From Shigella phage CT01, in the sequence record OK018184: a stretch of DNA of 64,000 bases; one strand, 5' to 3'. Numbering within the stretch: position 1 is the stretch's first letter; each line of letters begins with the position of its first letter. A program made the position numbers and the translations under genes. Positions 4,004 to 64,000 of this stretch are shown here, piece by piece. The notes beneath the pieces were generated by a model. The model had not been told where the DNA came from, did no database searches, and saw nothing but the letters and a program-made list of their open reading frames with translations.

Positions 4004-4684
4004 TTATTTTAATGTTACGAAAGAAGAATTACGTGTTTCACGAATTAGAACTGATCCGTCACGGTTAATGTAGTAAATTAAGCTAAACAGAGTTTGATGT
4101 GCCGACGCGTGTTCAAAACTAGTTGGGTGAGATTTCCAATCCGGAGTTTCAGCAATCCATTGGTAAATCCACCAAGGAACAGTACAGAATCCTGGATTTT
4201 TTCCAATCAGCTGAAGATTCGGACTAAAGTTTTCCGGAAGAGTAAATACAGACGGCTTTTCAGATTCAATAATCTCAGCTACAGCCTGTTCGAATTTTTC
4301 TTCAACAAAAGGAGTATCTTCAATCAAAACATCGGTATTTTCAGGAATTTTATCCATTTCTACTACTTCAATTTTAATGTCAGATTTAACCGGAGAATCA
4401 ATCAGAAGTGCTGCTTCTGGATTGACTTCTTCATCGTCATATTTTAATCCCTCTGCAGCATCAGCAGCATTAATTAAGTCTTTAATAGATAACCCATCAG
4501 TCTCTGGCATAGGTTCACTAGCGAGCTTCTGGAGAGCTTCTTCAATATCATTAACGATATTATCAAAAGATTTATTCTTTTTGACCTTTATACCAAACTG
4601 TTCAGCATATTCAGCTAATTTAGCTTTAGCTTCTTTATTATCATCAAGAGCCTTCAGCTCTGCAATATAATCTTTATCTATCAT
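4004..4684 (-). CDS. inh: inhibitor of prohead protease Inh
   Basis: 226 aa, same length and position as T4 inh between hoc and uvsW. Confidence 0.7.
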   Translation of the reverse strand: MIDKDYIAELKALDDNKEAKAKLAEYAEQFGIKVKKNKSFDNIVNDIEEALQKLASEPMPETDGLSIKDLINAADAAEGLKYDDEEVNPEAALLIDSPVKSDIKIEVVEMDKIPENTDVLIEDTPFVEEKFEQAVAEIIESEKPSVFTLPENFSPNLQLIGKNPGFCTVPWWIYQWIAETPDWKSHPTSFEHASAHQTLFSLIYYINRDGSVLIRETRNSSFVTLK

Positions 4685-4697
4685 AATATTTCCTCAG

Positions 4698-4705
4698 TAT
4701 AAATA
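4698..4705 (+). promoter_or_regulatory. T4 late promoter core TATAAATA upstream of uvsW
   Basis: Exact TATAAATA about 30 nt upstream of the uvsW ATG. Confidence 0.5.
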
Positions 4706-4734
4706 TAGATATATTTATTACATGGTATTTAGAC

Positions 4735-6246
4735 ATGACTGACATTAAAGTACATTTTTATGATTTTAGTCACGTGAGAATTGATTGTGAAGAAAGTACA
4801 TTTCATGAACTCCGTGATTTCTTTAGCTTTGAAGCTGATGGGTATCGTTTTAATCCGAAGTACAAATATGGCCACTGGGATGGACGAATCCGTCTTTTAG
4901 ATTATAATCGTCTTCTTCCATTCGGCTTAGTCGGACAAATTAAAAAGTTCTGCGATAACTTTGGCTATAAAGCCTGGATTGACCCGCAAATTAACGAAAA
5001 AGAAGAATTATCAAGAAAAGATTTTGATGAATGGCTTTCTAAATTAGAAATCTATTCAGGAAATAAAAGAATTGAACCGCATTGGTATCAAAAAGATGCA
5101 GTGTTCGAAGGATTAGTTAATCGTCGTAGAATTCTTAATCTACCAACATCCGCAGGTAAATCTTTAATTCAAGCTTTGCTTGCACGTTATTATTTGGAAA
5201 ATTATGAAGGTAAAATTCTTATCATTGTTCCAACAACCGCTTTAACAACTCAGATGGCTGATGACTTTGTTGACTATCGTTTATTCAGTCATGCAATGAT
5301 AAAGAAAATTGGCGGTGGAGCATCAAAAGATGATAAATATAAAAATGATGCACCAGTCGTTGTTGGTACATGGCAAACTGTAGTAAAACAACCGAAAGAA
5401 TGGTTCTCACAGTTTGGAATGATGATGAATGATGAATGCCATCTTGCTACAGGAAAAAGTATTTCATCTATCATATCAGGTTTAAATAACTGCATGTTTA
5501 AATTCGGTCTATCAGGTTCATTACGTGATGGCAAAGCCAATATCATGCAGTATGTTGGAATGTTTGGTGAAATATTTAAGCCAGTAACGACTTCTAAATT
5601 AATGGAAGATGGACAAGTAACTGAGTTAAAAATTAATAGTATTTTTCTTCGCTATCCCGATGAGTTCACTACTAAATTAAAGGGAAAAACTTACCAAGAA
5701 GAAATAAAAATTATTACTGGGCTCAGTAAAAGAAATAAATGGATCGCTAAATTAGCTATTAAGCTTGCGCAAAAAGATGAAAACGCTTTTGTCATGTTTA
5801 AACACGTATCACACGGTAAAGCTATTTTCGATTTAATTAAAAATGAATACGATAAAGTTTATTACGTATCAGGGGAAGTTGATACCGAAACACGCAACGT
5901 AATGAAAACCCTAGCTGAAAACGGTAAAGGAATAATTATAGTAGCTAGTTATGGTGTATTTTCTACTGGTATTTCAGTTAAAAATCTGCATCACGTTATT
6001 TTAGCACACGGTGTTAAATCTAAAATTATTGTATTGCAAACAATAGGTCGCGTATTACGTAAGCATGGTTCTAAAACAATCGCAACAGTCTGGGACCTCA
6101 TAGATGATTGCGGTGTTAAGCCAAAATCTGCTAATACGAAAAAGAAATACGTTCATTTGAACTATCTTTTAAAACACGGCATTGATCGTATTCAGCGCTA
6201 CGCAGATGAAAAATTTAATTACGTAATGAAAACAGTTAATTTATAA
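4735..6246 (+). CDS. uvsW: UvsW DNA/RNA helicase
   Basis: 503 aa; Walker A PTSAGKS and DECH box; matches recalled T4 UvsW. Confidence 0.9.
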   Translation: MTDIKVHFYDFSHVRIDCEESTFHELRDFFSFEADGYRFNPKYKYGHWDGRIRLLDYNRLLPFGLVGQIKKFCDNFGYKAWIDPQINEKEELSRKDFDEWLSKLEIYSGNKRIEPHWYQKDAVFEGLVNRRRILNLPTSAGKSLIQALLARYYLENYEGKILIIVPTTALTTQMADDFVDYRLFSHAMIKKIGGGASKDDKYKNDAPVVVGTWQTVVKQPKEWFSQFGMMMNDECHLATGKSISSIISGLNNCMFKFGLSGSLRDGKANIMQYVGMFGEIFKPVTTSKLMEDGQVTELKINSIFLRYPDEFTTKLKGKTYQEEIKIITGLSKRNKWIAKLAIKLAQKDENAFVMFKHVSHGKAIFDLIKNEYDKVYYVSGEVDTETRNVMKTLAENGKGIIIVASYGVFSTGISVKNLHHVILAHGVKSKIIVLQTIGRVLRKHGSKTIATVWDLIDDCGVKPKSANTKKKYVHLNYLLKHGIDRIQRYADEKFNYVMKTVNL

Positions 6247-21282: not shown

Positions 21283-22214
21283 TAGAATGCTCCTTGAAAA
21301 ATATTATCACCACTAGTAGGTCTATTATACAAATACTCTATGCCACCAGGTTTAATATAGTTCCATGTCTGAAACGGATGTGTCTGATATGGATGATATA
21401 GATGATTATTAGGTCTATTATACAAATACTCTATGCCACCAGGTTTAATATAGTTCCATGTCTGAAACGGATGTGTCTGATATGGATGATATAGATGATT
21501 ATAAGGATTTAATCCAGGCGTTCTCCAGGTAGTGTTCCAAGGAAAAGAATCGTTTTTAACCATCTTCTCAATTAAATCTTTTATAGCTTTTTCACTATCA
21601 AAACTTTCTTTATTTTCCTTCGGCGAAAAAAGCTTATTTTCTACATCATTCCATGTATAAACTCGCTGCGCAGTTTTTGGAATATTGTCACGCTCTCCTC
21701 GAGCCATCCAATAAACAGGAACATTTAATATTTCACTCGCATGATCGCAGTGATGAGCGAGATCGTCAATATAACAAATTACGTTATATTTCTCTTTTGC
21801 CTTTTTGAACAGCTCTTCTTTTGAAGAATCATGACCACACATCATTACTTCCGAGAAAGCACCAGGAAAAAGAGCATTCAAATTAAATTGACGATTCAAC
21901 AGAGCGTCAATAGAATCACCCAATGCTGTAACAGCTACAAAATTATAATCTTCTTTTAATTTGTTAATTACACACAGGGCATCTTTATACGGAGACAAGT
22001 AACGAATAAAATCTGAACGATTGTATTTTTCAATTAACTTGACGCCAAGTTCTTCGTCACAATTAAAGAGTTTACCCGGAGAAATAAATTTCTCATCTTG
22101 GATCATTTTTAAAATATGTTCTAATGGAAGATTATATTTCTGAGCAAAATAAGGAAGGCCTGATTGCCAGCTTAAACATACTCCATCAATATCAGTTAAA
22201 ATAGTTGGCTTCAT
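21282..22214 (-). CDS. HAD-like hydrolase-family protein (30.2 position) with in-frame 31-aa C-terminal duplication
   Basis: N-terminal DIDGV (DxDG) HAD motif; C-terminus repeats NHLYHPYQTHPFQTWNYIKPGGIEYLYNRP twice. Confidence 0.6.
   Translation of the reverse strand: MKPTILTDIDGVCLSWQSGLPYFAQKYNLPLEHILKMIQDEKFISPGKLFNCDEELGVKLIEKYNRSDFIRYLSPYKDALCVINKLKEDYNFVAVTALGDSIDALLNRQFNLNALFPGAFSEVMMCGHDSSKEELFKKAKEKYNVICYIDDLAHHCDHASEILNVPVYWMARGERDNIPKTAQRVYTWNDVENKLFSPKENKESFDSEKAIKDLIEKMVKNDSFPWNTTWRTPGLNPYNHLYHPYQTHPFQTWNYIKPGGIEYLYNRPNNHLYHPYQTHPFQTWNYIKPGGIEYLYNRPTSGDNIFQGAF
21317..21502. repeat. perfect 93-bp tandem duplication (2 copies) inside the 30.2 ORF
   Basis: 21317-21409 is identical to 21410-21502. 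Confidence 0.9.
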
Positions 22215-27143: not shown

Positions 27144-27664
27144 GTTGATCCTAGCTCCTTACTTTCAACGTTTTTAACTAATTTGACAGAAACTAATTCA
27201 GCATCTTGGGTAATCATTACCGGGCCTTCTTCATACTCTTCAAGATATTCTAGAGCTTTCTTTTTAGCTTCTTCCTTCGTATCAGTTTGAGCATAGATAT
27301 AAAACATACAACCAGTAATACCTACTACTTTCCACTTAATTTCTTTATCAGTTTTAATTTCAAATTTACTGATAGAGTCATCTTTTTGAACTTCTTCGAA
27401 AAAATAATATTCTGACATATAAGTAATTGAAAATAGCGGGCTATCTTTATAAGATTCGCCCATTACATCAACAGCTTTATACCAGCAATCGTCAATTTCG
27501 CGTTTAATGCTAATAACATTTTTCGCAGGATCTATTTTTACTTTAAATGAATTTTCCCCAATAAACTGAGCAATTCGTTTATTAGCCCCGCAAGTTTCAT
27601 TAAAAATATCTTTATATCCAGCTTTAAAGCGATAAACCTTATCTTCTTCAAACCATTCGCTCAT
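27137..27664 (-). CDS. hypothetical protein
   Basis: 175-aa ORF. Confidence 0.5.
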   Translation of the reverse strand: MSEWFEEDKVYRFKAGYKDIFNETCGANKRIAQFIGENSFKVKIDPAKNVISIKREIDDCWYKAVDVMGESYKDSPLFSITYMSEYYFFEEVQKDDSISKFEIKTDKEIKWKVVGITGCMFYIYAQTDTKEEAKKKALEYLEEYEEGPVMITQDAELVSVKLVKNVESKELGSTC

Positions 27665-32665: not shown

Positions 32666-33817
32666 TTAAAAGTATTTTTTAAAACTCATCATAACTTTAT
32701 CATCAACATCATTATCAATCTGTGCAACAAGGTAAGATGACAGTTCTACTTCTTGTGGCGCGGATTGAACATTATCAGAATTAAGGTATTCACGAATCCA
32801 AGGATATGGATGTTTAACCGGAGCATCGGTAATTGGGCATGGAAGACCGCACTGTTTCATACGAGATACAGTTAAGTAATCAATAAAGCTCCACATGCTA
32901 TTTGTATTTAATCCAGGAACATCGCCATCTTTAAATAAATGAACTGCCCAATCTTTTTCTTGGCGGTTAACTTCCATGAAAATATTAACTGCTTCTTGTT
33001 CACACTCTTGAGCAATTTTAACCCATTCGCCGCCATCAGTACCGGATTGAAGTTGACGAATAATATATTGGGTGCCTTTAAGGTGAAGCTGCTCATCACG
33101 TGCAATGAACTTCATAATCTTGGCATTACCTTCCATGATTTCCATGTTCTTATGGAAGTTAAAGGTACATGCAAAAGATACATAAAAACGAATAGCTTCT
33201 AAGGCATTAATAACGTGCAAACAGAGGTAAAGAGATTTCATTAGTGCTCGTTTAGCTTCGGCTTCTTGTTTAATAGCTCGATTTAAACGAAAAACAGCAT
33301 CAGGAGATTCTTTAGCTAGTTCTGTAAATTCTTTAGCATTTTCCCATTCACGGGTTTTAGTCAGAACATCATCATAATAGCGACCGATAGATTCAGCACG
33401 TTTCATGATAGCTTCATCTAGTACAATCTCATCAAATACCTTCGATGGATCAGTATAAAGATTTCGCATGATATGGGTATATGAACGGCTATGAATAGTT
33501 TCACTAAAAGTCCATGTAGCAACCCATGTATCAAGACTTGGGTCTGAAATTAATGACATAAGTACTGCAGACGGTGCACGACCCTGAATGCTATCTAGAA
33601 GTGATTGATACTTCAGGTTGTTAGTAAAAATATCTTGCTGATACTGAGGAAGCTTGTTAAATTGTGCAGCATCCATCATTAAGTTTACTTCTTCAGGACG
33701 CCAGAAAAATGACAACTGCTTTTCGGTTAAATCTTCAAAAACTTTATGACGTTGAATATCATAACGCGCAATACCAAGACCTGAACCGAAGAACATAGGT
33801 TCTTTTAAAACATTCAA
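32666..33817 (-). CDS. nrdB: ribonucleotide reductase small subunit NrdB, intron-less
   Basis: 383 aa continuous ORF with the di-iron ligand region; no intron or I-TevIII ORF. Confidence 0.9.
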   Translation of the reverse strand: MNVLKEPMFFGSGLGIARYDIQRHKVFEDLTEKQLSFFWRPEEVNLMMDAAQFNKLPQYQQDIFTNNLKYQSLLDSIQGRAPSAVLMSLISDPSLDTWVATWTFSETIHSRSYTHIMRNLYTDPSKVFDEIVLDEAIMKRAESIGRYYDDVLTKTREWENAKEFTELAKESPDAVFRLNRAIKQEAEAKRALMKSLYLCLHVINALEAIRFYVSFACTFNFHKNMEIMEGNAKIMKFIARDEQLHLKGTQYIIRQLQSGTDGGEWVKIAQECEQEAVNIFMEVNRQEKDWAVHLFKDGDVPGLNTNSMWSFIDYLTVSRMKQCGLPCPITDAPVKHPYPWIREYLNSDNVQSAPQEVELSSYLVAQIDNDVDDKVMMSFKKYF

Positions 33818-33947
33818 CTAAATTTTCCTTATCATCAGAACCTCCCATACATCTAGGGATTATATGATGTGTCTCTTTATATTCTGATAAAGATTCCCGA
33901 GCCTGAGCTCGGGAAATTAGGTCATTATAGATTTTTTGATAATTCAT
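33759..33947 (-). pseudogene. mobE: truncated HNH homing-endonuclease remnant (mobE-like)
   Basis: 62-aa ORF with HNH motif ETHHIIPRCMGGSDDKENLV that runs into the nrdB start; lies in the nrdA-nrdB gap where T4 has mobE. Confidence 0.5.
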
Positions 33948-34729
33948 TACAATTTACACGCTGCGCAATCATCGGCTTTTGGAGTTTCTATTTCGTAATC
34001 ATCAGTACCGGAACCATCACGAGTATTATGATAATAGAAGTTTTTAATGCCATAATACCATCCGTATAGCATGTCATCAATCATTACAGACATTGGAACC
34101 TTTCCTTTTGGAAAAATCTGCGGGTCATAATATGTATTCGCTGAAGCTGATTGACATACCCATTTCAGCATAATAGCTACCTGCGTAAGATAAGGTTTAT
34201 TGCCTTTCTTAGCTAATTTCCACGTATAATCATAGAGGTCTATGTTATGCTCAATATTGGGCACGACTTGATTAAAGGAACCCTCTTTTGATTCTTTAAC
34301 AGAGACTGGTCCACGTGGAGGCTCGATACCGTTTGTACTGTTAGAAACTTGGGAAGATGACTCACATGGCATAAGTGCTGATAATGTGCTATTACGGATG
34401 CCAAAGAGCTTAAGGTCTTCCCGCAGCGACGACCAGTCACAAACGTATTTTGGAGCTGCGATTTGGTCAATCTTTTTATTGTACCAGTCGATAGGTAATT
34501 CGCCTCGAGACCAACGAGTGTCTGAATAATATTCGCAAGGTCCTTTTTCTTTGGCGAGCTTAATGGATGCTTTAATGAGCCCATACTGTAATCTCTCAAA
34601 TAGTTCATGTGTTAAATCGTTAGCATCTTCATAAGAAGCAAAGTTACTTGCCAGCCAAGCTGCATAGTTCGTAACACCAACACCGAGATTACGACGCTTT
34701 TTAGCTTTTAAAGCTTCTGGAACCGGATA

Positions 34730-34877
34730 ATCTTGATAGTCTAACAGGTTATCAAGTGCACGTACTTGAACTTCTGCTAATTCATTAATTTTATCTTGGT
34801 CTTGCCAATCGAAGTTATCCAACACAAATGCAGATAACGTGCACAATCCAATTTCAGCATCAGGACTATTCACATCA
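34730..34877. repeat. 148-bp direct repeat of nrdA sequence, left copy flanking the insert
   Basis: Identical to 35737-35884; encodes DVNSPDAEIGLCTLSAFVLDNFDWQDQDKINELAEVQVRALDNLLDYQD. Confidence 0.9.
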
Positions 34878-35736
34878 GTTCGACGCGTTGTTCTTGAAGA
34901 CGGATCACATACTTGGACTGCTAAACAAGATTTTAATGGCGCAGTTAACTTTAACTCTACTGTTAACCTTAATAACACTACCACATTTAAAACAGAAGTT
35001 AAATTCCGCTCGTTGAATGCATTCCGTATGTATGGCGGAAAATTTGGTACATTTTTACGTAATGATGGAGAGAGTCTTTATATTCTTTCCACCGACGAAG
35101 ATGATCAAGATGGAAACTTTAATACAAATAGACCTTTCCGTTATGAATTAAGAACTGGTGATGTTACTTTGGGTGGTGTTAGTGGTGCTAACGTTTTAAA
35201 ATTAAAACGTGATTCTCTCACCGCATTTTTTGGCGGTGATATTAACATGAAAGGCACGATGACTTTTGACGCCGGACGTTTAGGGTCACGAGATTATTTT
35301 AAATTTAACCATTGGGGTGATAGCAATAACGCTCGTGATAACATCATCCAGTTAGAAGATAGTCAAGGCGCTCATTTTTCCACTGAACGTACTTTAGCGA
35401 CTGGTGCAATTAAAACTCGTTTCTTTGGCGAAACATTCACTGATGGTACATTATACCTAAATCAGATGAATAATAGCTCTGAACGATTCCATATCAATAA
35501 TTGGGGAAATTCAGAAGTTGGTCGCGCGGCAGTGATGGAAGTCGGTGATTCCAAAGGTTATCACTTCTATACGGAACGCAGGACAGATAACAGTTTGACA
35601 TTTGATGTTGCTGGCACTTTTACCGTGCATGGACCTACCGGGATCACTATCAAAAACTCTGTTGGTGCTCGCCACATCTGGTTTAAAGATGATAGCGATG
35701 CAGAAAAGGCTGACAGTTTAATTACCTTCCGCAGTG
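34878..35736 (+). other. inserted segment derived from long tail fibre gene 37 (835 bp of gene 37 sequence plus 24-bp filler)
   Basis: 34876-35712 matches the gene 37 copy at 52582-53074 and also contains the 344 bp absent from that copy; 35713-35736 has no match in the window. Confidence 0.85.
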
Positions 35737-35884
35737 ATCTTGATAGTCTAACAGGTTATCAAGTGCACGTACTTGAACTTCTGCTAATTCATTAATTTTA
35801 TCTTGGTCTTGCCAATCGAAGTTATCCAACACAAATGCAGATAACGTGCACAATCCAATTTCAGCATCAGGACTATTCACATCA
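35737..35884. repeat. 148-bp direct repeat of nrdA sequence, right copy
   Basis: Identical to 34730-34877. Confidence 0.9.
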
Positions 35885-37208
35885 TTTGTTGGAATAGCAA
35901 TTTCACAACACAAGTTACTCTGGCGAATAGGCGCCTTTTCACGAATAAACGGAGTATAGTTATTCGTATTATCAATGAACTGCACATAAATCCTTGCTGT
36001 TCCTGATCGTTCAGTCATGAGTAATTCAAATAGTTCACGGGCTTTAATACGCTTTTTGCGAATATTAGGGTCTTTTTCTGCTGCTTCGTATAATTCGCAG
36101 AAACGGTCTTGGTCTTTAAAATAAGAATAATAAAGCTCACCACCCATTTCATGCGGACTGAACAAAGTAATGTAATCGTTCTTTCCAAAACGTTCCATCA
36201 TCAAATCATTCAACTGGACGCCATAATCCATATGACGGATACGGTTTTCTTCTACACCTTTGTTATTTTTCAAAACGAGAAGATTTTCAACTTCCAAATG
36301 CCAAATAGGATAATAAGCAGTAGCAGCGCCGCCACGAATTCCGCCCTGTGAACATGATTTAACAGCAGTCTGAAAATGTTTCCAAAAAGGAATAACACCA
36401 GTATGGCGTACTTCACCTGTGCCAATCTTAGAACCTTCGGCACGAATCATACCAACGTTAATACCGATTCCAGCTCGTTTTGAAATATACTCAACAATTG
36501 AAGCAGAAGCCTTATTGATAGACTTCAGCGAATCGCCTGCCTCAATAACAACGCATGAACTAAATTGCCGAGTCGGAGTACGACATCCAGCCATAATAGG
36601 AGTAGGCAGTGAAATCTGTCGAGTAGATACTGCTTCATAAAAACGAATAACATGTTTTAATCTATCAACAGGTTCATCTTGATGTAATGCCATTCCAATA
36701 GTCATAAATGCAAACTGAGGAGTTTCATAAATTTGACCAGTGGTTTTATCTTTAACGAGATATTTTTCTTTTAATTGCATCGCCCCGGAATAAGTAAATT
36801 CCATATCCCGCTCATGCTTAATTTTTGATTCTAAAAATGTAATTTCTTCTGCTGAATATTTTGACAACAATTCAGGGTCGTATTTACCTTCATTTACACA
36901 GTAAGAAATATGGTCAATAAATGAACGTGGTTCATATTGCCCGTAAACATGCTTACGAAGAGCAAACATTAAACACCGTGCAGCTACGTATTGATAATCA
37001 GGCTCTTCAACTGAAATAGAATTCGCAGCAGCCTTAATTACAATGGTTTGAATGTCATCAGTGGTCATTCCATCACGGAGATATGATTTAATATTTTCAT
37101 ATAATTCATAAGGATCTACAGATGTTCCTTCAGCTGCCCAAGATAAAACTTTAATAATTTTTTGCGGGTCAAAGCTTTGAGAAACACCACTACTTTTGAT
37201 AACATTAA

Positions 37209-37535
37209 TTAATTGCATAAGTCCTCAACTTGAAAATCGTCTTTAAACAATCGGTTAACTATATGAGCTATTATATCACCATGACACGGCTTTGGTTTAC
37301 ATGTGCATCCTAGCCTCATTCCACGTAAAGGCTCTAAATGTGCTTTAGTTATTTCTCCGGATTTAATTCGACGTATAAAATCTTTTTTGAATAATTCAAT
37401 GGCAGCCTCCCGGCTGCCAGCATCTTTACCGACGTAATTTCCCCAAAATGTACCACGGTGAATATTAACATCAAAGTCGGATTTATATTTATTCACTACT
37501 TGGCATAGACGGCCCGCGCGGTGATAATTTGTCAT
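37209..37535 (-). CDS. hypothetical Cys-rich protein at the nrdA.1 position
   Basis: 108-aa ORF upstream of nrdA. Confidence 0.55.
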
Positions 37536-37775: not shown

Positions 37776-38636
37776 TTACACCGCCATTTTTCCTTTAATA
37801 GGAGGGTGAGATACATAGTTGTTAAGAACAAAATTATGCGGCTTTGCGAATTGACTCAACCAAAATACCTGTGATTCTGTGTCCCATTCATCAAATTCAT
37901 CTGGAAATTTTAATTGTAATTCGCATAAATCCATAGGTTCACGACGCAAAATTTCTTTACATTGTTCTACGTGATTCATATAGATATGAGTATTACCACC
38001 AGAAAATATCAAATCTCCTGGAATAAGATTACACATCTTAGCTACAATATGAACTAATGCAGCATATGATGCAATGTTGAATGGCAAGCCCAAGAACACG
38101 TCAACACTTCTTTGATACCACTGCAAATCCAAATAGCCATTACGCACATTAAACTGATAGAACATATGACAAGGCGGTAATGCCATTTGCTTGAGTTCAG
38201 CTGGATTCCATGCTGAAACAATTTGACGTCTATCATTTGGCAGTTTTTTAATACGATCAACAACTTCTATAATTTGGTCTACACCGCCAAAATCACGCCA
38301 TTGTTTTCCATAAATTGGACCAAGTTCACCGCTATGATATCCTAAATCTTTTGCTTGATTTTCGTAATTTTCATCCCAGACTGTTTTGCCTTGAATTAAT
38401 GAATCATGCTGAATTAATCGTAAATCATTTACGTTAGTACTTCCTGATAAAAACCATATTAGCTCAGCAATGCAAGCTTTCCAGGCGAGCTTCTTAGTTG
38501 TTACTGCAGGAAAACCTTTACTTAAATCCCAGCGTAATTTAGTACCGAACAGAGCAATTGTTCCTGTGCCTGTTCGGTCATCAGTTTCATAGCCATTTTC
38601 AAAAATGTCTTTAATTAAATCTTGGTATTGTTTCAT
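37776..38636 (-). CDS. td: thymidylate synthase, intron-less
   Basis: 286 aa continuous ORF with active-site region PPCH; no group I intron or I-TevI ORF. Confidence 0.9.
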   Translation of the reverse strand: MKQYQDLIKDIFENGYETDDRTGTGTIALFGTKLRWDLSKGFPAVTTKKLAWKACIAELIWFLSGSTNVNDLRLIQHDSLIQGKTVWDENYENQAKDLGYHSGELGPIYGKQWRDFGGVDQIIEVVDRIKKLPNDRRQIVSAWNPAELKQMALPPCHMFYQFNVRNGYLDLQWYQRSVDVFLGLPFNIASYAALVHIVAKMCNLIPGDLIFSGGNTHIYMNHVEQCKEILRREPMDLCELQLKFPDEFDEWDTESQVFWLSQFAKPHNFVLNNYVSHPPIKGKMAV

Positions 38637-38681
38637 TTAGTACCTTATATAAATTATAATACATTTTATGAAGCTAAATAA

Positions 38682-39041
38682 TCAATACGGTTTAGCGTCA
38701 AATTTTCTTTCAATTTCAGGCGTAAAATATAATTCTTTACCACGCTTGGAAAAGCGACCAATAATATGATAATTATTCTCATCAAACGTGATATTGCCAA
38801 TATCCATAGCTTTCAACCAAATATCGATATTTCTGTCAAGCTTTATATCAAAATTCCAATACGGAGAACTATTACCGAAAATACTGCAAGCGGATTCAGT
38901 GAAACAACTACTATAAATCTTGTCTTTAGGAACTACTAATTGATAGACGCCTTTAATAAACTGAGGACCCTGCCATTTTGGCTGTTTCGCGTCTTTTTCT
39001 AATAGAATAGGGTAATAATTAAAGCTCATATTTTCCGCCAC
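38682..39041 (-). CDS. hypothetical protein inserted between frd and td
   Basis: 119-aa ORF with no recognisable motifs, occupying a gap where T4 frd and td abut. Confidence 0.5.
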   Translation of the reverse strand: MAENMSFNYYPILLEKDAKQPKWQGPQFIKGVYQLVVPKDKIYSSCFTESACSIFGNSSPYWNFDIKLDRNIDIWLKAMDIGNITFDENNYHIIGRFSKRGKELYFTPEIERKFDAKPY

Positions 39042-39049
39042 GTGTTATT

Positions 39050-39876
<827 letters not shown>

Positions 39877-39884
39877 ATTATCTC

Positions 39885-40220
39885 CTAATATAAAGGATCG
39901 GGAACATATCCACTAGCTTTAATCATTTTGATTAATGTTAACATTCCTTTATTAACTGCTCGTGAGATTTCATCAAAAACTTCATCACTAAAAAGTTCTA
40001 ACACGCCCTTCTGAACTTTTAATTTACACCCAATAATTTCGTCATCGCCTATAGTAAATTCGTTTCCGCCAATTCCACCGAAAAACTTAATTGCACCAGT
40101 CAACTGTCTTCCACGAGAATATGGGTCGTGTGATAAAGTAATATGAGTCACCCCAGGTACAGTTTTAAATTGACAGCGGATGTTTACTTGGGCAATTCCA
40201 GTTACGTGAATGTCAGACAT
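39885..40220 (-). CDS. hypothetical protein (frd.2-like position)
   Basis: 111-aa ORF. Confidence 0.5.
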   Translation of the reverse strand: MSDIHVTGIAQVNIRCQFKTVPGVTHITLSHDPYSRGRQLTGAIKFFGGIGGNEFTIGDDEIIGCKLKVQKGVLELFSDEVFDEISRAVNKGMLTLIKMIKASGYVPDPLY

Positions 40221-41472: not shown

Positions 41473-42381
41473 TTAAAGGTCATTCAAAAGGTCATCCAGA
41501 TCCGTGTCATCAGCACTAGATGAACTGCCAGAGCTTGAGCTCATAAAATCATCTTCAGTTTTTGTTTTGAAGTCATCAACATTGAATGCATCCAAATCAT
41601 CAGCAACTTTATCAGCTTTCTTAGCGGCAGTTGCTGCGGCACCGCCCATAGCAGCAGTTCCCATAACTTGACTGAACTTAGTGCTCAGTTCTTCAAACGA
41701 TTTGAATTTATCTTTAGAAGTCATTTCAGAAAGGTCAACCATTTGTTCGAACAGTTCTTTCTGGAAAGATTCATCATCAATGTTTGGAATCGCAGATTGA
41801 TTCAGGAATTTAGATTCATCGTAGTTACTAAAACCAGAAACTTGTTTAACTTTCAGTACAAAGTTAGCACCTTCCCACGGACAAGTTACATCAACCGGAG
41901 TTTCACCCATTTCAACATCAACTGCAATCATTGCATTGATTTTATCCCAGATTTTCTTACCAAAACGGTATTTAAATACTTTACCTTCATTTTCTGGAGC
42001 AGCTGGGTCTTTTACTACAAGAATGTTAGCCCAGTAAGAAGTTTTACGTTTAACAAGACCGTACTCTTTATTGTCAGTGTTATACAAATCATTTTTACTG
42101 ATGTACTGACATACTGGACAAGAATCGTAATCACCGTGGGTAGATGAACAGTTTTCAATATACCATTTACCATTTTTCTTGAAACCGTGATTTACAAGAA
42201 TTGCGAATGGTGCTTGTTCATCATTTTTAGACGGAAGAAAACGAATTACTGCTTGACCGTTACCCGCATTATCGAGTTTCAGTTTCCACTCGCCTTTATC
42301 TTCAGAAGAAAAACTACCTTTATTTCCAGCCAGTTTAGCCATTTGTGCAGCGAGTTCAGCAGTAGATTTACGTTTAAACAT
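41473..42381 (-). CDS. 32: single-stranded DNA-binding protein gp32
   Basis: 302 aa; [17 protein letters not shown]..., acidic C-terminus [12 protein letters not shown]; matches recalled T4 gp32. Confidence 0.9.
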
Positions 42382-42628
42382 TTTTATTTCCTTTTTAATT
42401 TAATTAACAGTTGGTGCTATGACGATGTATGACCTCATAGCTGGTCAGTGAGATAATTATAATCTATTTATAATAAGCAATTAATACTTACAAGATTTCA
42501 CAGTTTCAATGAAAACACTTTTGGCTTTCTGTGAATCAATATTTAAAATTTTTCTATAAGCCTTTAACTTTATAGAATAATTATTCCAGACTAAATTATC
42601 AGTCTGTTCATCATGTTTATCAATTATA
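42091..42628. repeat. 538-bp direct repeat, copy 1 (gene 32 5' end, its leader, and the gene 59 3' end)
   Basis: Identical to 42692-43229 (offset 601 bp). Confidence 0.9.
42481..42628 (-). pseudogene. duplicated 3' fragment of gene 59 (last 48 codons)
   Basis: Encodes [48 protein letters not shown], identical to the gp59 C-terminus. Confidence 0.7.
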
Positions 42629-42691
42629 ATTCGAACTGATCTGTGTTTGTGCATTTGGGCATATGTTTGCGCGCGTAAAGCAGGCTGGTCG
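42629..42691. other. 63-bp unique spacer between the two 538-bp repeat copies
   Basis: No match found elsewhere in the window by eye. Confidence 0.6.
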
Positions 42692-42982
42692 ATTTTTACT
42701 GATGTACTGACATACTGGACAAGAATCGTAATCACCGTGGGTAGATGAACAGTTTTCAATATACCATTTACCATTTTTCTTGAAACCGTGATTTACAAGA
42801 ATTGCGAATGGTGCTTGTTCATCATTTTTAGACGGAAGAAAACGAATTACTGCTTGACCGTTACCCGCATTATCGAGTTTCAGTTTCCACTCGCCTTTAT
42901 CTTCAGAAGAAAAACTACCTTTATTTCCAGCCAGTTTAGCCATTTGTGCAGCGAGTTCAGCAGTAGATTTACGTTTAAACAT
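42692..42982 (-). pseudogene. duplicated 5' fragment of gene 32 (first 97 codons) fused to junction sequence
   Basis: Track ORF 42620..42982 begins with the gp32 N-terminus and then diverges into spacer-encoded residues. Confidence 0.7.
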
Positions 42983-43229
42983 TTTTATTTCCTTTTTAAT
43001 TTAATTAACAGTTGGTGCTATGACGATGTATGACCTCATAGCTGGTCAGTGAGATAATTATAATCTATTTATAATAAGCAATTAATACTTACAAGATTTC
43101 ACAGTTTCAATGAAAACACTTTTGGCTTTCTGTGAATCAATATTTAAAATTTTTCTATAAGCCTTTAACTTTATAGAATAATTATTCCAGACTAAATTAT
43201 CAGTCTGTTCATCATGTTTATCAATTATA
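42692..43229. repeat. 538-bp direct repeat, copy 2
   Basis: Identical to 42091-42628. Confidence 0.9.
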
Positions 43230-50403: not shown

Positions 50404-51096
50404 ATGGCTGATTTAAAAGTAGGTTCAACTGTGGGTGGATCTGTCATTTGGCATCAAGGAAATTTTCCATTGAATTCAGCCGGTGACGATGTACTCTACA
50501 AATCATTTAAAATATATTCAGAATATAATAAACCGCAGGCAGCTGATAACGATTTCGTTTCTAAAGCTAATGGTGGTACTTACACCGGTCCAATTACTAT
50601 TAATTACGGGGTAAATAGTTATCTTCAATTAAGTAATAATGAAACCCCTATCCGAATTCGTTCTGGTGGCGGCACCGGTAATACTCTTGTAATTGGTGGA
50701 TCTTCTGGTGGTATTAGTTTTAGACCTGCAGGTAGTGAAATCACTACTGGACAAATTAGTTTTAGACCTGCAGGTAGTGAAATCACTACTGGACAAATTA
50801 CTATTACGCCAGAAGGTTTGACAACATTCACCAAAGCTGTAAAGGCTCCATCTGTAACTGTTACATCTACTCCTTCCGCAGCATCAGATGCTACTCGTAA
50901 AGATTATGTTGATGGAGCAATAAATACTGTTACAGCAAATGCAAACTCTAGAGTGTTACGATCTGGTGACACCATGACAGGAAATTTAACTGCGCCAAAC
51001 CTTTTTTCACAGAATCCTGCATCTCAACCTTCACACGTTCCACGATTTGACCAAATCGTAATTAAGGATTCTGTTCAAGATTTCGGCTATTATTAA
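50404..51096 (+). CDS. 36: long tail fibre distal connector gp36 (with internal 14-aa tandem duplication)
   Basis: 230 aa; N- and C-terminal regions match recalled T4 gp36; [14 protein letters not shown] occurs twice. Confidence 0.8.
50713..50796. repeat. perfect 42-bp tandem duplication (2 copies) inside gene 36
   Basis: attagttttagacctgcaggtagtgaaatcactactggacaa repeated back to back. Confidence 0.9.
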
Positions 51097-51104
51097 GAGG
51101 ACTT

Positions 51105-53835
51105 ATGGCTACTTTAAAACAAATACAATTTAAAAGAAGCAAAACCGCAGGTCAACTTCCTGCTGCTTCAGTATTAGCCGAAGGTGAATTGGCTATTAAT
51201 TTAAAAGATAAAACAATTTTCACAAAAGATGACTCAGGCAATGTTATAGAATTAGGTTTAAAATATGGAGGAACAATTGATGGTTCTTTAACTGTTAATG
51301 GAAATATAATTGGAAATTTAACAGGTAACGCTGCAACTGCAACGAAATTAAAAACAGCACGAAAAATTAATGGTATATCCTTTGATGGGTCAAAAGATAT
51401 CACGCTAACTCCATCCGACATAAATGTCAATAGCACAACGTTTATAAAAAATAACGGCGAATTACCTGTTGATGCTAATTTAGATACGTATGGGCCTGTT
51501 GAAGAATATCTTGGAGTTTGGTCGAAAGCAACTTCAACCAACGCTCAACCAGCAAATAAATTTCCAGAAAACAATGCTGTAGGTGTGCTAGAAGTATTTG
51601 TGGCCGGTCAATTTGCTGGTACTCAGAGATATACAACTAGATACGGAAATGTTTATATTCGTTCCTTGACTGCTACATGGAACGGAGTAAATGGTCCGTG
51701 GAGTGTGTGGCGAAATATTCAATCCGGTACTCGTTCACTGTCAACAACAATTGATCTTAATGATCTAGGAGGTGCTGAACATCTTGGTTTGTGGCGAAAT
51801 AGTTCAAATTCCATTGCTACCTTTGACAGAAATTTCCCAGAAGAGGGGTCGTCAGCTCAAGGTCTTTTGGAAGTATATGAAGGTGGAAACTATTCTCGTA
51901 CACAAAGATATACAACCAGATTTGGTGTTGTTTATACTCGCTGTCTTACTGCTGCGTGGGATGCTTCTGCGCCTAAATGGGGACCGTGGCAACAAGTCGG
52001 TAATGTCACACCGGCGACTTTCTATGACGGAAACCTGAATGATTTTAAAACTCCTGGGTTATATAATATTTTAGGCACTGATGCCGTTATTAATTGTCCT
52101 ACAGGCGAAGGTTTACCAGCCGTTATTGTTGGTTTGCTGGAAGTTAAACAGCGTGCTTCTGGCGGTGCTATTTTCCAAAAATTTACTACTGCCGGAACAG
52201 GTGCAACTACCCGCGATCGTATTTTTGAGCGCGCATATACCGGCGGTGTGTGGGGTGAATGGAACGAAGTATACACATCTTATTCTCTACCAATTACTTT
52301 GGGTATGGGCGGTATTAAATCTAACTTAGCAGAGTTAGACTGGCAAGCATTTGATTTTGTTCCTGGTAGTATGTTTAGCGTTCCTTTGAACAAAATAAAG
52401 AACATGCCAGCTAATATGGATTGGGGTACGATTGACGGAAACTTAATTATGTTTTCTGTTGGTCCTAGCGAGCACACCAGCACAGGACGTACTGTTCAGG
52501 TTTGGCGTGGAACTGTATCCCAGACAAACTATCGTTATTTTGTCGTTCGTGTATTCGGTAATCCAGGGAGTAGAACATGTACAGTTCGACGCGTTGTTCT
52601 TGAAGACGGATCACATACTTGGACTGCTAAACAAGATTTTAATGGCGCAGTTAACTTTAACTCTACTGTTAACCTTAATAACACTACCACATTTAAAACA
52701 GAAGTTAAATTCCGCTCGTTGAATGCAAGGCGCTCATTTTTCCACTGAACGTACTTTAGCGACTGGTGCAATTAAAACTCGTTTCTTTGGCGAAACATTC
52801 ACTGATGGTACATTATACCTAAATCAGATGAATAATAGCTCTGAACGATTCCATATCAATAATTGGGGAAATTCAGAAGTTGGTCGCGCGGCAGTGATGG
52901 AAGTCGGTGATTCCAAAGGTTATCACTTCTATACGGAACGCAGGACAGATAACAGTTTGACATTTGATGTTGCTGGCACTTTTACCGTGCATGGACCTAC
53001 CGGGATCACTATCAAAAACTCTGTTGGTGCTCGCCACATCTGGTTTAAAGATGATAGCGATGCAGAAAAGGCTGTTATCTGGGCTACAGATGAGGGTATT
53101 TTACATATTCGCAATAATCATGAGGGTTCATTTAGTCATCACTTCCAGGGTGCAATGATTAAACTGGAAGGGCGTGTTCCTTATGGTGCAGCAAAAGGGC
53201 TTATTCGAGGCGAGATAGACGGTGGTGCATATGTTGCATGGAGAGACCGCCCTGCTGGTTTGTTGGTTGACTGCCAGAAAAGTATTGACAGTGCTCATGC
53301 TGTTTGGAAAGCGGTTGATTGGGGGCGTCAATATATCGCTGCTATGGACGTTCATTGTCCGGGTGATGGTAATAATACTGCGGCAGCGGTTCTTCATGTT
53401 CAGGCTGCTGATTATCAATTCCATGCAAGCGGAGAATTTCATGCCACTGGTAACGGGAACTTTAACGATGTGTATATTCGTTCCGATGGTCGTCTGAAAA
53501 TTAATGTTGAAGATTATACAGGAAATGCGTTAAGTTTGATCGGCAAACTGAAAGTGAAAACTTACGATAAAGTTAAATCTCTTAAAGACCGTGAAATTAT
53601 CGGTCACGAGATCGGCATTATCGCACAGGATTTACAAGAAATATTACCGGAAGCTGTAAAATCTTCAAAGGTTGGCAATCTTGATAATCCAGACGATGTT
53701 CTGACAATTTCTAACTCTGCTGTGAATGCTCTTTTAATTAAGGCTATTCAGGAAATGAGTAAAGAAATTAAAGAATTGAAAACTCCTTTCTTTACTAAAA
53801 TTGCTCGCAAAATTAGTAAATATTTTAAATTCTAA
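51105..53835 (+). pseudogene. 37: long tail fibre distal subunit gene 37, broken by a 344-bp frameshifting deletion at 52727/52728
   Basis: Two overlapping ORFs in different frames (51105..52748 and 52723..53835); the missing 344 bp is present in the copy inside nrdA at 35022-35365. Confidence 0.8.
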
Positions 53836-61820: not shown

Positions 61821-62378
61821 TTAAATGGAAAGATACCATCCGTTGTAGTTGCTTTTTCTTACAACCTTACGAAGGTCTTCTCTATCACCGACGAACTTCG
61901 GAGTGTACTGGATGACACCTGGATGAATTTCTTTAGTGTTGAATATAATTATACAGTCAGCGACTTGATGATTCAGAATGGGCCCTAGATTTATTCCAGA
62001 ACCGTATGGATACTCTCCGCTGCATCCGGTTGTTACAGAAATCCAACGTGAGTCAGTTTGGTGTGTCTTAACTTCTACGCGAATCCCGCAGTATCTTGGA
62101 TGCGCCAATACATCCCATGCGTATGTATACGGGTCATTAACATCCTCTTGGCCTTTGTTAACATACCCGCTTAGCCAATCTGCTACAAAAAACTCTGCGT
62201 ACACCGCGATACGGCATCTTTCGATAACTTCTGCTTTATCCTGATTTGGATTTTGTTTTAAAGAGTATCTTGCTGTATCAGCAATTTTGACCTTCATTTC
62301 ACTAGTCAAGTCACTGTTCGATAGGGTAAATGTCGGAATCTGAAATAGTCTCTGTAAACCCGGATTCGTTTTCTGCAT
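61821..62378 (-). CDS. denB: endonuclease IV (DenB)-like protein
   Basis: 185 aa, T4 denB length and position between ndd and rIIB; identity by synteny and length only. Confidence 0.6.
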   Translation of the reverse strand: MQKTNPGLQRLFQIPTFTLSNSDLTSEMKVKIADTARYSLKQNPNQDKAEVIERCRIAVYAEFFVADWLSGYVNKGQEDVNDPYTYAWDVLAHPRYCGIRVEVKTHQTDSRWISVTTGCSGEYPYGSGINLGPILNHQVADCIIIFNTKEIHPGVIQYTPKFVGDREDLRKVVRKSNYNGWYLSI

Positions 62379-62719
62379 TAAACTTTCCTTTTACGTCGGA
62401 ATCACTGATATTCATACAATAAATCATAACTTCCCTTAAAACAAAAGGGCCGAAGCCCCTTATTTTATTTGAATTGTGCAATTCTTTTCTCTATCTTGCT
62501 GTATCAGCAATTTTGACCTTCATTTCACTAGTCAAGTCACTGTTCGATAGGGTAAATGTCGGAATCTGAAATAGTCTCTGTAAACCCGGATTCGTTTTCT
62601 GCATTAAACTTTCCTTTTACGTCGGAATCACTGATATTCATACAATAAATCATAACTTCCCTTAAAACAAAAGGGCCGAAGCCCCTTATTTTATTTGAAT
62701 TGTGCAATTCTTTTCTCTA
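62266..62719. repeat. perfect 226-bp tandem duplication (2 copies) spanning the denB 5' end, its upstream region with terminator, and the 3' end of the 64-aa gene
   Basis: 62266-62491 is identical to 62492-62717; boundaries ambiguous by 2 bp. Confidence 0.9.
62446..62468 (-). terminator. hairpin gggc-cgaa-gccc plus T-run; further copies at 62672-62694 and 62903-62925
   Basis: aaaagggccgaagccccttattttatttgaattg occurs three times. Confidence 0.5.
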
Positions 62720-63858: not shown

Positions 63859-64000
63859 AATTTTCCTTATTAGGCCGCAAGGGCCTTCATAGTTTTAGCG
63901 ATTTGGGAAACTTCATCATCACTTAAAGAATTGGGGTTGTATGTTTTATATCTATGCTCAAACTGATACGAAGGAAGAAGCTAAAAAGAAAGCTCTAGAA

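Follow-up and report, generated by a model that had tools for sequence, protein, structure and literature searches.

Identity of the open reading frame between nrdA and nrdB

This work concerns a short open reading frame (ORF) lying between nrdA and nrdB in Shigella phage CT01 (OK018184); the stretch analysed, here called the window, is a 64-kb segment (64,000 nucleotides) of a T4-like (Tequatrovirus) genome. On the minus strand, the genes follow each other in the order td, two small ORFs, nrdA, the ORF in question (hereafter the stub), nrdB, denA and rnlA. The nearest public record to the window is Shigella phage SF2-1 (PQ571308.1), with 98.5% identity over 25 kb and 99.7-100% identity around the stub.

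The stub has 62 codons and occupies exactly 33759-33947 on the minus strand. Its residues 1-45 (MNYQKIYNDLISRAQARESLSEYKETHHIIPRCMGGSDDKENLVE, including the stretch ETHHIIPRCMGGSDDKENLV quoted in the original prediction) are encoded at 33813-33947 and match the 243-residue homing endonuclease of SF2-1 (XPO97928.1) at 45/45 positions and T4 MobE at 44/45. The stub also scores 22.8 bits against the Pfam HNH domain (PF01844; cutoff 21.4) and matches phrog_655, annotated 'homing endonuclease', with E=1.4e-24; T4 MobE and the SF2-1 protein belong to the same PHROG family. The similarity is far beyond chance, and on these matches the stub is a real feature, securely identified as the 5' stub of a gene for a free-standing HNH homing endonuclease of the MobE family. 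This bears out the earlier view that the ORF is a mobE-like HNH endonuclease fragment in the position of T4 mobE. It is a known endonuclease family at its usual locus, and nothing departs from the known biology of the MobE family. Hef was considered as another identity and set aside, the N-terminus being clearly MobE-like. Sandegren and colleagues are said to have described in 2005 how Hef, an unrelated endonuclease, takes the place of mobE in phage U5.

The original prediction put the surviving part of the endonuclease at about 47 residues, after which the frame was thought to run into the start of nrdB. The fragment itself stands, with 45 residues by our count; the description of its end does not, since nrdB has itself lost its start codon and its first 31 nt. 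The last 17 codons of the stub (CFKRTYVLRFRSWYCAL, then TGA; 33759-33812, minus strand) are nrdB sequence read in the wrong frame. A full-length HNH ORF, recoverable by correcting a frameshift, had been named as the finding that would overturn the prediction, and we rejected a full-length gene hidden in this way: no further endonuclease sequence exists in any frame, and a six-frame tblastn search of the window recovered only residues 1-45(53) and no other endonuclease piece.

Deletion at the boundary of the endonuclease gene and nrdB

Alignment to SF2-1 resolves the difference at this locus into one 628-bp deletion (positions 4215-4842 of the SF2-1 locus, L001), flanked by DNA that is 99.7% identical on one side and 100% identical on the other. 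The junction lies at 33812-33814 and reads ...AAAACAT|TCAACT... on the plus strand and ...TTAGTTGA-AT-GTTTTAAAAG... on the minus strand; the parental ends in SF2-1 are ...AGTTGAAT|TAAC on the endonuclease side and ...AGTTGAT|GTTT on the nrdB side. The strict microhomology is AT (2 nt), and a 6-nt repeat, AGTTGA, is present at both ends on the minus strand with an offset of 1 nt. The deletion fuses endonuclease codon 45 to nrdB nucleotide 32. Lost in between are endonuclease residues 46-243, which include the third histidine of the HNH motif and the NUMOD1 module, together with the nrdB ribosome-binding site (AAAGAGGAAAAATTAATG in SF2-1), the ATG and the first 31 nt (10 codons) of nrdB.

The 135 nt that remain of the endonuclease gene are identical to SF2-1 at 135/135 positions and sit inside a 1066-nt block of 100% identity. 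Because the retained part carries no substitution, the loss is best read as a recent one-step event without degeneration over time; as far as the alignment tells, the stub arose by a private 628-bp deletion and not by gradual decay. Repair of a MobE cut was considered as the origin of the deletion and is not supported, as the mapped nick of T4 MobE (nrdB nt 122-126) lies beyond the deleted interval, which reaches no further into nrdB than nt 31.

Functional parts retained and lost

Of the HNH motif, the stub keeps H27/H28 and N42. The third motif histidine is H51 (...ENLVELTAREH), beyond the breakpoint; it was placed by alignment to the last histidine of maturase and McrA HNH domains, in PDB alignments that are weak (E=0.029 and 0.73) and in which the motif lines up consistently. 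A complete His-Asn-His catalytic motif is accordingly absent from the stub. In the intact 243-residue protein the HNH region is N-terminal and NUMOD1 occupies residues 147-177. As to a C-terminal DNA-binding module, neither NUMOD1 nor NUMOD3 was found in any frame of the window; in T4, NUMOD3 sits in nrdB.1. An in-frame deletion of the HNH motif is known to abolish nicking by MobE (Wilson & Edgell, PMC2790892). Since the stub has lost the third HNH histidine and the DNA-binding module, and since deletion of the motif kills MobE nicking, we infer that it cannot nick or home, being catalytically dead and devoid of a DNA-binding domain.

The expression signals at the 5' end of the gene are retained. 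In TAATGA (33944-33949, minus strand), the stop codon of nrdA overlaps the start codon of the stub; T4 mobE has this overlap too, and there it is believed to couple translation (Edgell et al. 2010, PMC2988022). A scan also detected an intragenic terminator-like hairpin on the minus strand at 33894-33915 (TTCCCGAGC tcag GCTCGGGAA, then TCTTTATCAG), which is identical in SF2-1, has a folding energy of -17.8 kcal/mol (z=-4.2) and corresponds to the internal terminator described for mobE (PMC2790892). T4 mobE is promoterless and co-transcribed with nrdA, and ~30% of the transcripts end at the internal terminator (PMC2790892, PMC2988022).

Coupling to nrdA makes translation of the 62-residue product probable, and the product keeps the HH and the N of the motif, so that one may ask whether it acts as a minimal HNH nickase, as a dominant-negative peptide or, through frameshifting, as a MobE-NrdB fusion. 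We give such a function hardly any credence: the third motif histidine and any DNA-binding module are missing, the tail is out-of-frame nrdB without a homologue, no such short protein is on record, and no slippery site or conservation favours frameshifting.

Consequences for nrdB

The collateral loss falls on nrdB, which remains as a 5'-truncated gene at 32666-33817 on the minus strand, its native ribosome-binding site, ATG and codons 1-10 gone. A candidate new in-frame start is a TTG at 33815-33817, preceded after an 8-nt spacer by UAAGGA (33826-33831); all of these elements come from endonuclease codons (D-K-E-N-L-V-E). A second candidate is the in-frame ATG of Met17 (33794-33796), which lacks a clear Shine-Dalgarno sequence. 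By folding, the region around the new nrdB start is unstructured. The NrdB residues lost (MSTVFNTNPVD) form a non-conserved N-terminal tail, conservation with the Escherichia coli R2 protein starting at LKEPMFFG. Because only this tail is lost, the shortened NrdB could be active if it were made.

Transcription may be affected too. The middle promoter of T4 nrdB is located at or just past the 3' end of mobE, a position argued to protect mobE from deletion (Wilson & Edgell, PMC2790892). The MotA-type promoter candidates of T4 and a weaker candidate of SF2-1 all fall within the deleted interval, and none remains in the window; for the SF2-1 nrdB middle promoter, a strict MotA-box search returned nothing strict, only a relaxed candidate. 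The region in which T4 has its nrdB middle promoter appears, on this comparison, to be removed from the window allele as well. T4 nrd mutants can grow on host reductase.

Comparison with related phages and known alleles

Across 564 related phage records, the nrdA-nrdB locus takes four forms by matched span: 1129 bp (the 243-residue allele), 1093 bp (T4 type), 1036 bp (T6 type) and 450 bp (endonuclease-less, e.g. T2). The form seen in the window occurs in 0/564 of them. A mobE-type 5' end is present in ~102/564, the rest being endonuclease-less; mobE is found in only some T-even phages. The deletion junction is absent from 50,697 phage records, its 36-mer from IMG/VR, the JGI metagenomes and the GTDB genomes, and the 62-residue product from a collection of 15 billion proteins. 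Close relatives carry other arrangements: the Logan contig DRR843009_808, whose td is identical to that of the window, has the intact arrangement of 754, 243 and 392 amino acids, and relatives with an identical frd are cleanly empty at the locus, with 51 nt of spacer and an NrdB of 392 residues (for one relative, locus L005, the comparison was made by alignment of the td/frd region and its gene table). Since relatives carry intact or clean empty alleles and none carries the window form, the state of the window is a private derivative of an endonuclease-carrying allele.

The parental allele is that of SF2-1 (XPO97928.1, 243 residues), also found in P922, in DRR843009_808 and in ~55 other records, with flanking nrdA and nrdB 99.7-100% identical to the window. 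The intact SF2-1 gene encodes HNH and NUMOD1 and its stop codon overlaps the nrdB ATG, whereas the window lacks residues 46-243 and nrdB nt 1-31. T4 MobE (NP_049844.1, 141 residues) shares with the stub the locus, the TAATGA overlap with the nrdA stop, the 5' intragenic terminator hairpin, the PHROG family and 44 of the 45 N-terminal residues. T4 MobE, however, has the full catalytic motif and genetic activity, nicking nrdB of T2 at nt 122-126 (PMC2790892), whereas the window retains only 45 codons; the T4 interval downstream, which carries nrdB.1 (NUMOD3) and the nrdB promoter, is deleted in the window. In T4 (L004, 5717-6417), mobE (141 residues) and nrdB.1 (83 residues, NUMOD3) match consecutive phrog_655 positions, 27-164 and 163-234; judged from these matches, the two together resemble a longer endonuclease, for instance the 243-residue SF2-1 allele, that has been split.

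Two further alleles are instructive. First, the same operon in T4 provides a precedent in I-TevIII, an HNH homing endonuclease gene that is truncated and inactive (T4 annotation; PMC2790892). I-TevIII lies in the nrdB intron with a deletion in its proximal half (annotation of the T4 record), has become fixed in T4 and can still be mobilised by MobE in trans; the stub, in contrast, is private, has lost the 3' part of its gene and came with collateral damage to nrdB. Second, the endonuclease-less allele of the T2 type (OR906198.1; ERZ27238201 k111_26938) likewise has no working endonuclease between nrdA and nrdB. These natural empty alleles, however, have a clean ~51-nt spacer, the native ribosome-binding site and a full 392-residue NrdB, whereas the window has the stub and a truncated nrdB.

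Disruption of nrdA and other private rearrangements

The original prediction took nrdA to be intact, and here it was mistaken. Counted from the stub, the gene consists of a 3' fragment (33947-34877, minus strand; residues 446-754, 100% identical to SF2-1 nrdA), to whose stop codon the stub is coupled, an insertion (34878-35736, plus strand), and a 5' fragment (35737-37218, minus strand; residues 1-494, then HCGR and a stop). The insertion is an 837-bp copy of a segment of gene 37, the distal long tail fibre gene, with 24 nt of filler. The 837 bp are 100% identical to positions 95814-96650 of the SF2-1 record, partially copy window positions 52582-53074 and give a Gp34_trimer Pfam match; they lie antisense to nrdA, after nrdA residue 494, and the interruption is 930 nt upstream from the stub. 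The insert is bordered by a direct repeat of 148 bp that is perfect (34730-34877 = 35737-35884), so that nrdA residues 446-494 are encoded twice, and the left junction shows CA microhomology. The 24-nt filler is absent from IMG/VR, and the nrdA fragment is not on record as a protein. In Aeromonas phage Aeh1, nrdA is likewise present as two ORFs, a mobE gene separating C439 from C462, and evolved tails reassemble the enzyme (PMC3045599). The break in the window differs: it follows residue 494, a gene 37 fragment in antisense orientation plus filler forms the insert, residues 446-494 are duplicated, and there is no hint of function.

Further rearrangements are found along the window. Compared with SF2-1, 344 bp are absent from the native gene 37 (at 52726-52727), and the resulting frameshift splits it into ORFs at 51105-52748 and 52723-53835; the ectopic copy in nrdA still has these 344 bp, with flanks of 146 and 349 bp, and the deletion junction occurs in no other phage record. 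A 538-bp perfect duplication (42091-43229) comprises the 3' end of gene 59, the intergenic region and the 5' end of gene 32, with intact genes 59 and 32 remaining. Its copies are parted by a 63-nt filler of ~48% guanine plus cytosine, within which 26 nt match E. coli mdtD exactly; a wider 40-mer from this filler is in no GTDB representative genome. A perfect tandem duplication at 62266-62719 (226-bp period, TA microhomology), private to the window, extends from the last part of a small ORF into the beginning of denB. In gene 36, a 42-bp in-frame tandem duplication (50713-50800, ATTA microhomology) gives a protein of 230 amino acids, against 216 in SF2-1. A private 117-bp deletion at ~40448, with TT microhomology, truncates a small ORF at its 3' end and a DUF5417 (frd.1-like) ORF at its 5' end, and 529/529 related records split in two pieces there. 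Finally, the last 66 nt of the window (63935-64000) are an inverted copy of 27248-27313, 36 kb away, joined within rIIA with a 1-nt filler, which indicates an inversion or translocation junction running off the window. A 202-bp apparent deletion at ~61740 is natural, because it is shared with other phages. We also noted an imperfect (98%) 93-bp tandem repeat at 21314-21506 and a 178-bp intergenic deletion relative to SF2-1 at ~24637.

All seven filler-free junctions treated as private, with the 42-bp duplication and the 178-bp deletion counted as such by comparison with SF2-1 alone, have 2-4 nt of microhomology (AT, CA, CA, TT, TA, ATTA and ACT), and three further junctions carry fillers of 24, 63 and 1 nt. 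Random in silico edits are an unlikely origin, given that 7/7 filler-free junctions have at least 2 nt of microhomology (by our own estimate ~0.18 per random junction) and that one filler matches mdtD. The pattern favours template switching on real DNA, whether in recombination-dependent replication of the T4 type or in the course of amplification or library preparation.

The same pattern raises the question of whether the deletion was ever present in phage DNA, or whether it is purely an artefact of polymerase template switching or chimera formation in amplification, library preparation or low-coverage long-read assembly. We regard this as a serious possibility, although on balance a doubtful one. 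At least seven private junctions in ~43 kb, all with 2-4-nt microhomology or filler, one of the fillers resembling host mdtD, speak for it, as do lesions incompatible with viability, the inverted 66-nt copy of a distant region at the window end and the lack of any rearranged product in the protein collection. However, De Bruijn misassembly needs long shared k-mers and not 2-nt overlaps, the base-level accuracy is very high, and chimeras made by phi29 are mostly inverted, whereas the junctions in the window are mostly direct. In vivo template switching during T4 recombination-dependent replication would, moreover, leave the same signatures.

Origin of the truncated allele

The original prediction regarded the stub as decayed and the region as a snapshot of mobile-element loss. 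That reading does not survive the comparison: 0/135 nt are changed, the deletion was made in one step, its junction is unique, nrdB is damaged, and other private lesions accompany it. A degenerating pseudogene would be marked by accumulated substitutions, by presence of the allele in more than one genome or sample, and by an otherwise intact carrier; none of these was found, gene 37 being frameshifted and nrdA interrupted.

Our preferred reading, which we hold to be likely, is that the ORF is what a single private deletion of 628 bp left of a MobE-family gene, a 5' stub without function, and that it most likely belongs to a defective or chimeric molecule and not to a viable lineage shedding a selfish element. 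Because of the other private rearrangements, including the frameshift in the essential gene 37 and the insertion in nrdA, the sequence is probably not that of an evolving viable lineage; neither a frameshift in gene 37 nor long direct repeats without mismatch should be expected in a plaque-purified, viable T4-like phage. We propose the following course of events. A deletion at the 2-nt microhomology flanked by AGTTGA would have joined endonuclease codon 45 to nrdB nt 32, leaving the stub catalytically dead with its TAATGA overlap and terminator hairpin in place. The net effect would then fall on nrdB, whose transcription would depend on read-through of the terminator from upstream of the disrupted nrdA, and whose translation could restart only at the fortuitous UAAGGA-N8-UUG derived from endonuclease codons or at Met17. 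The event would be very recent or non-heritable, and would count among the seven or more private junctions that show 2-4-nt microhomology or filler, the most likely source being a defective or chimeric DNA molecule formed by template switching in vivo or during sample preparation.

Several observations weigh against this reading. Spontaneous T4 deletions tend to occur between short direct repeats, and the AGTTGA repeat at both ends fits this pattern, in agreement with an allele that is real and heritable. What remains of nrdB includes precisely the conserved core of the protein, together with a credible Shine-Dalgarno sequence and UUG, which could reflect selection for a working nrdB. The argument from the lost promoter is weakened in that the SF2-1 candidate (ACGCTTAT-N12-TATTAT) is a consensus match. 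In addition, the sequence alone does not separate an in vivo deletion from a library or assembly chimera.

These points bear on the possibility that a viable phage lineage is losing its homing endonuclease in the cycle of invasion, degeneration and loss, with nrdB working from the new start codon. We consider this unlikely. It would agree with the position of the stub at the natural mobE locus, where the gene is sporadically present, with the short repeats at the deletion ends, with the removal of only the non-conserved NrdB N-terminus, and with the creation of UAAGGA-N8-UUG in an unstructured region. However, the retained 135 nt show zero substitutions, the junction is unique to the window, and nrdB has lost its ribosome-binding site and ATG and probably its promoter; such deletions are argued to be selected against (Wilson & Edgell, PMC2790892). 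It is also at odds with the disruption of nrdA in the same operon and of the essential gene 37, and with the perfect 148-bp and 538-bp direct repeats, which should be unstable in a recombination-proficient T4-like phage. Similarly improbable, in our view, is a genuine heritable microhomology excision in vivo in a replicating SF2-1-like phage, which would have killed the endonuclease, rebuilt an nrdB start (UAAGGA-N8-UUG) by chance or selection and spared the conserved NrdB core.

If the deletion is nevertheless heritable, it would provide a natural test of the proposal of Wilson & Edgell that embedded nrdB expression signals protect mobE from deletion, and thus a small natural experiment on how tightly the promoter and start signals of a neighbour lock in a free-standing homing endonuclease; the junctions and the mdtD filler would then document template-switch rearrangement and capture of host DNA in T4-type recombination-dependent replication. 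Biologically the stub is minor, as it belongs to a well-studied family at its usual locus and shows no sign of function or of persistence in a population. Its practical value is that of a warning: because of the cluster of private rearrangements, including the lesion in an essential tail-fibre gene, inferences of gene content or 'decay' from this window need read-level support before they are called evolutionary states.

Intron-free td and nrdB and neighbouring accessory ORFs

The original prediction also held that td and nrdB are free of group I introns and of I-TevI and I-TevIII, and this was confirmed. The td gene (37776-38636, 286 amino acids) and the remaining nrdB are continuous. Relative to T4, the nrdB intron (~600 bp) is cleanly absent at 33168/33171 and the td intron (~1020 bp) at 38084/38089; Rfam gave no match in the whole 64-kb window, and tblastn found no I-TevI or I-TevIII coding sequence in any frame of the window (best E=0.32). 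With no Rfam match, clean insertion sites and no coding sequence, cryptic introns and hidden I-TevI or I-TevIII were rejected. The relatives vary in this respect: one (L007) has no td intron and no homing endonuclease gene, and two others (L008 and L009) have the td intron with I-TevI. Intron-free td and nrdB are, by this comparison, a common and ordinary natural state.

Around td and frd, small ORFs at 38640-39049 (between the two genes) and at 39634-40220 (upstream of frd) are absent from T4 and variable in SF2-1, OR906198.1 and the Logan and ENA contigs, which looks like ordinary accessory-gene polymorphism.

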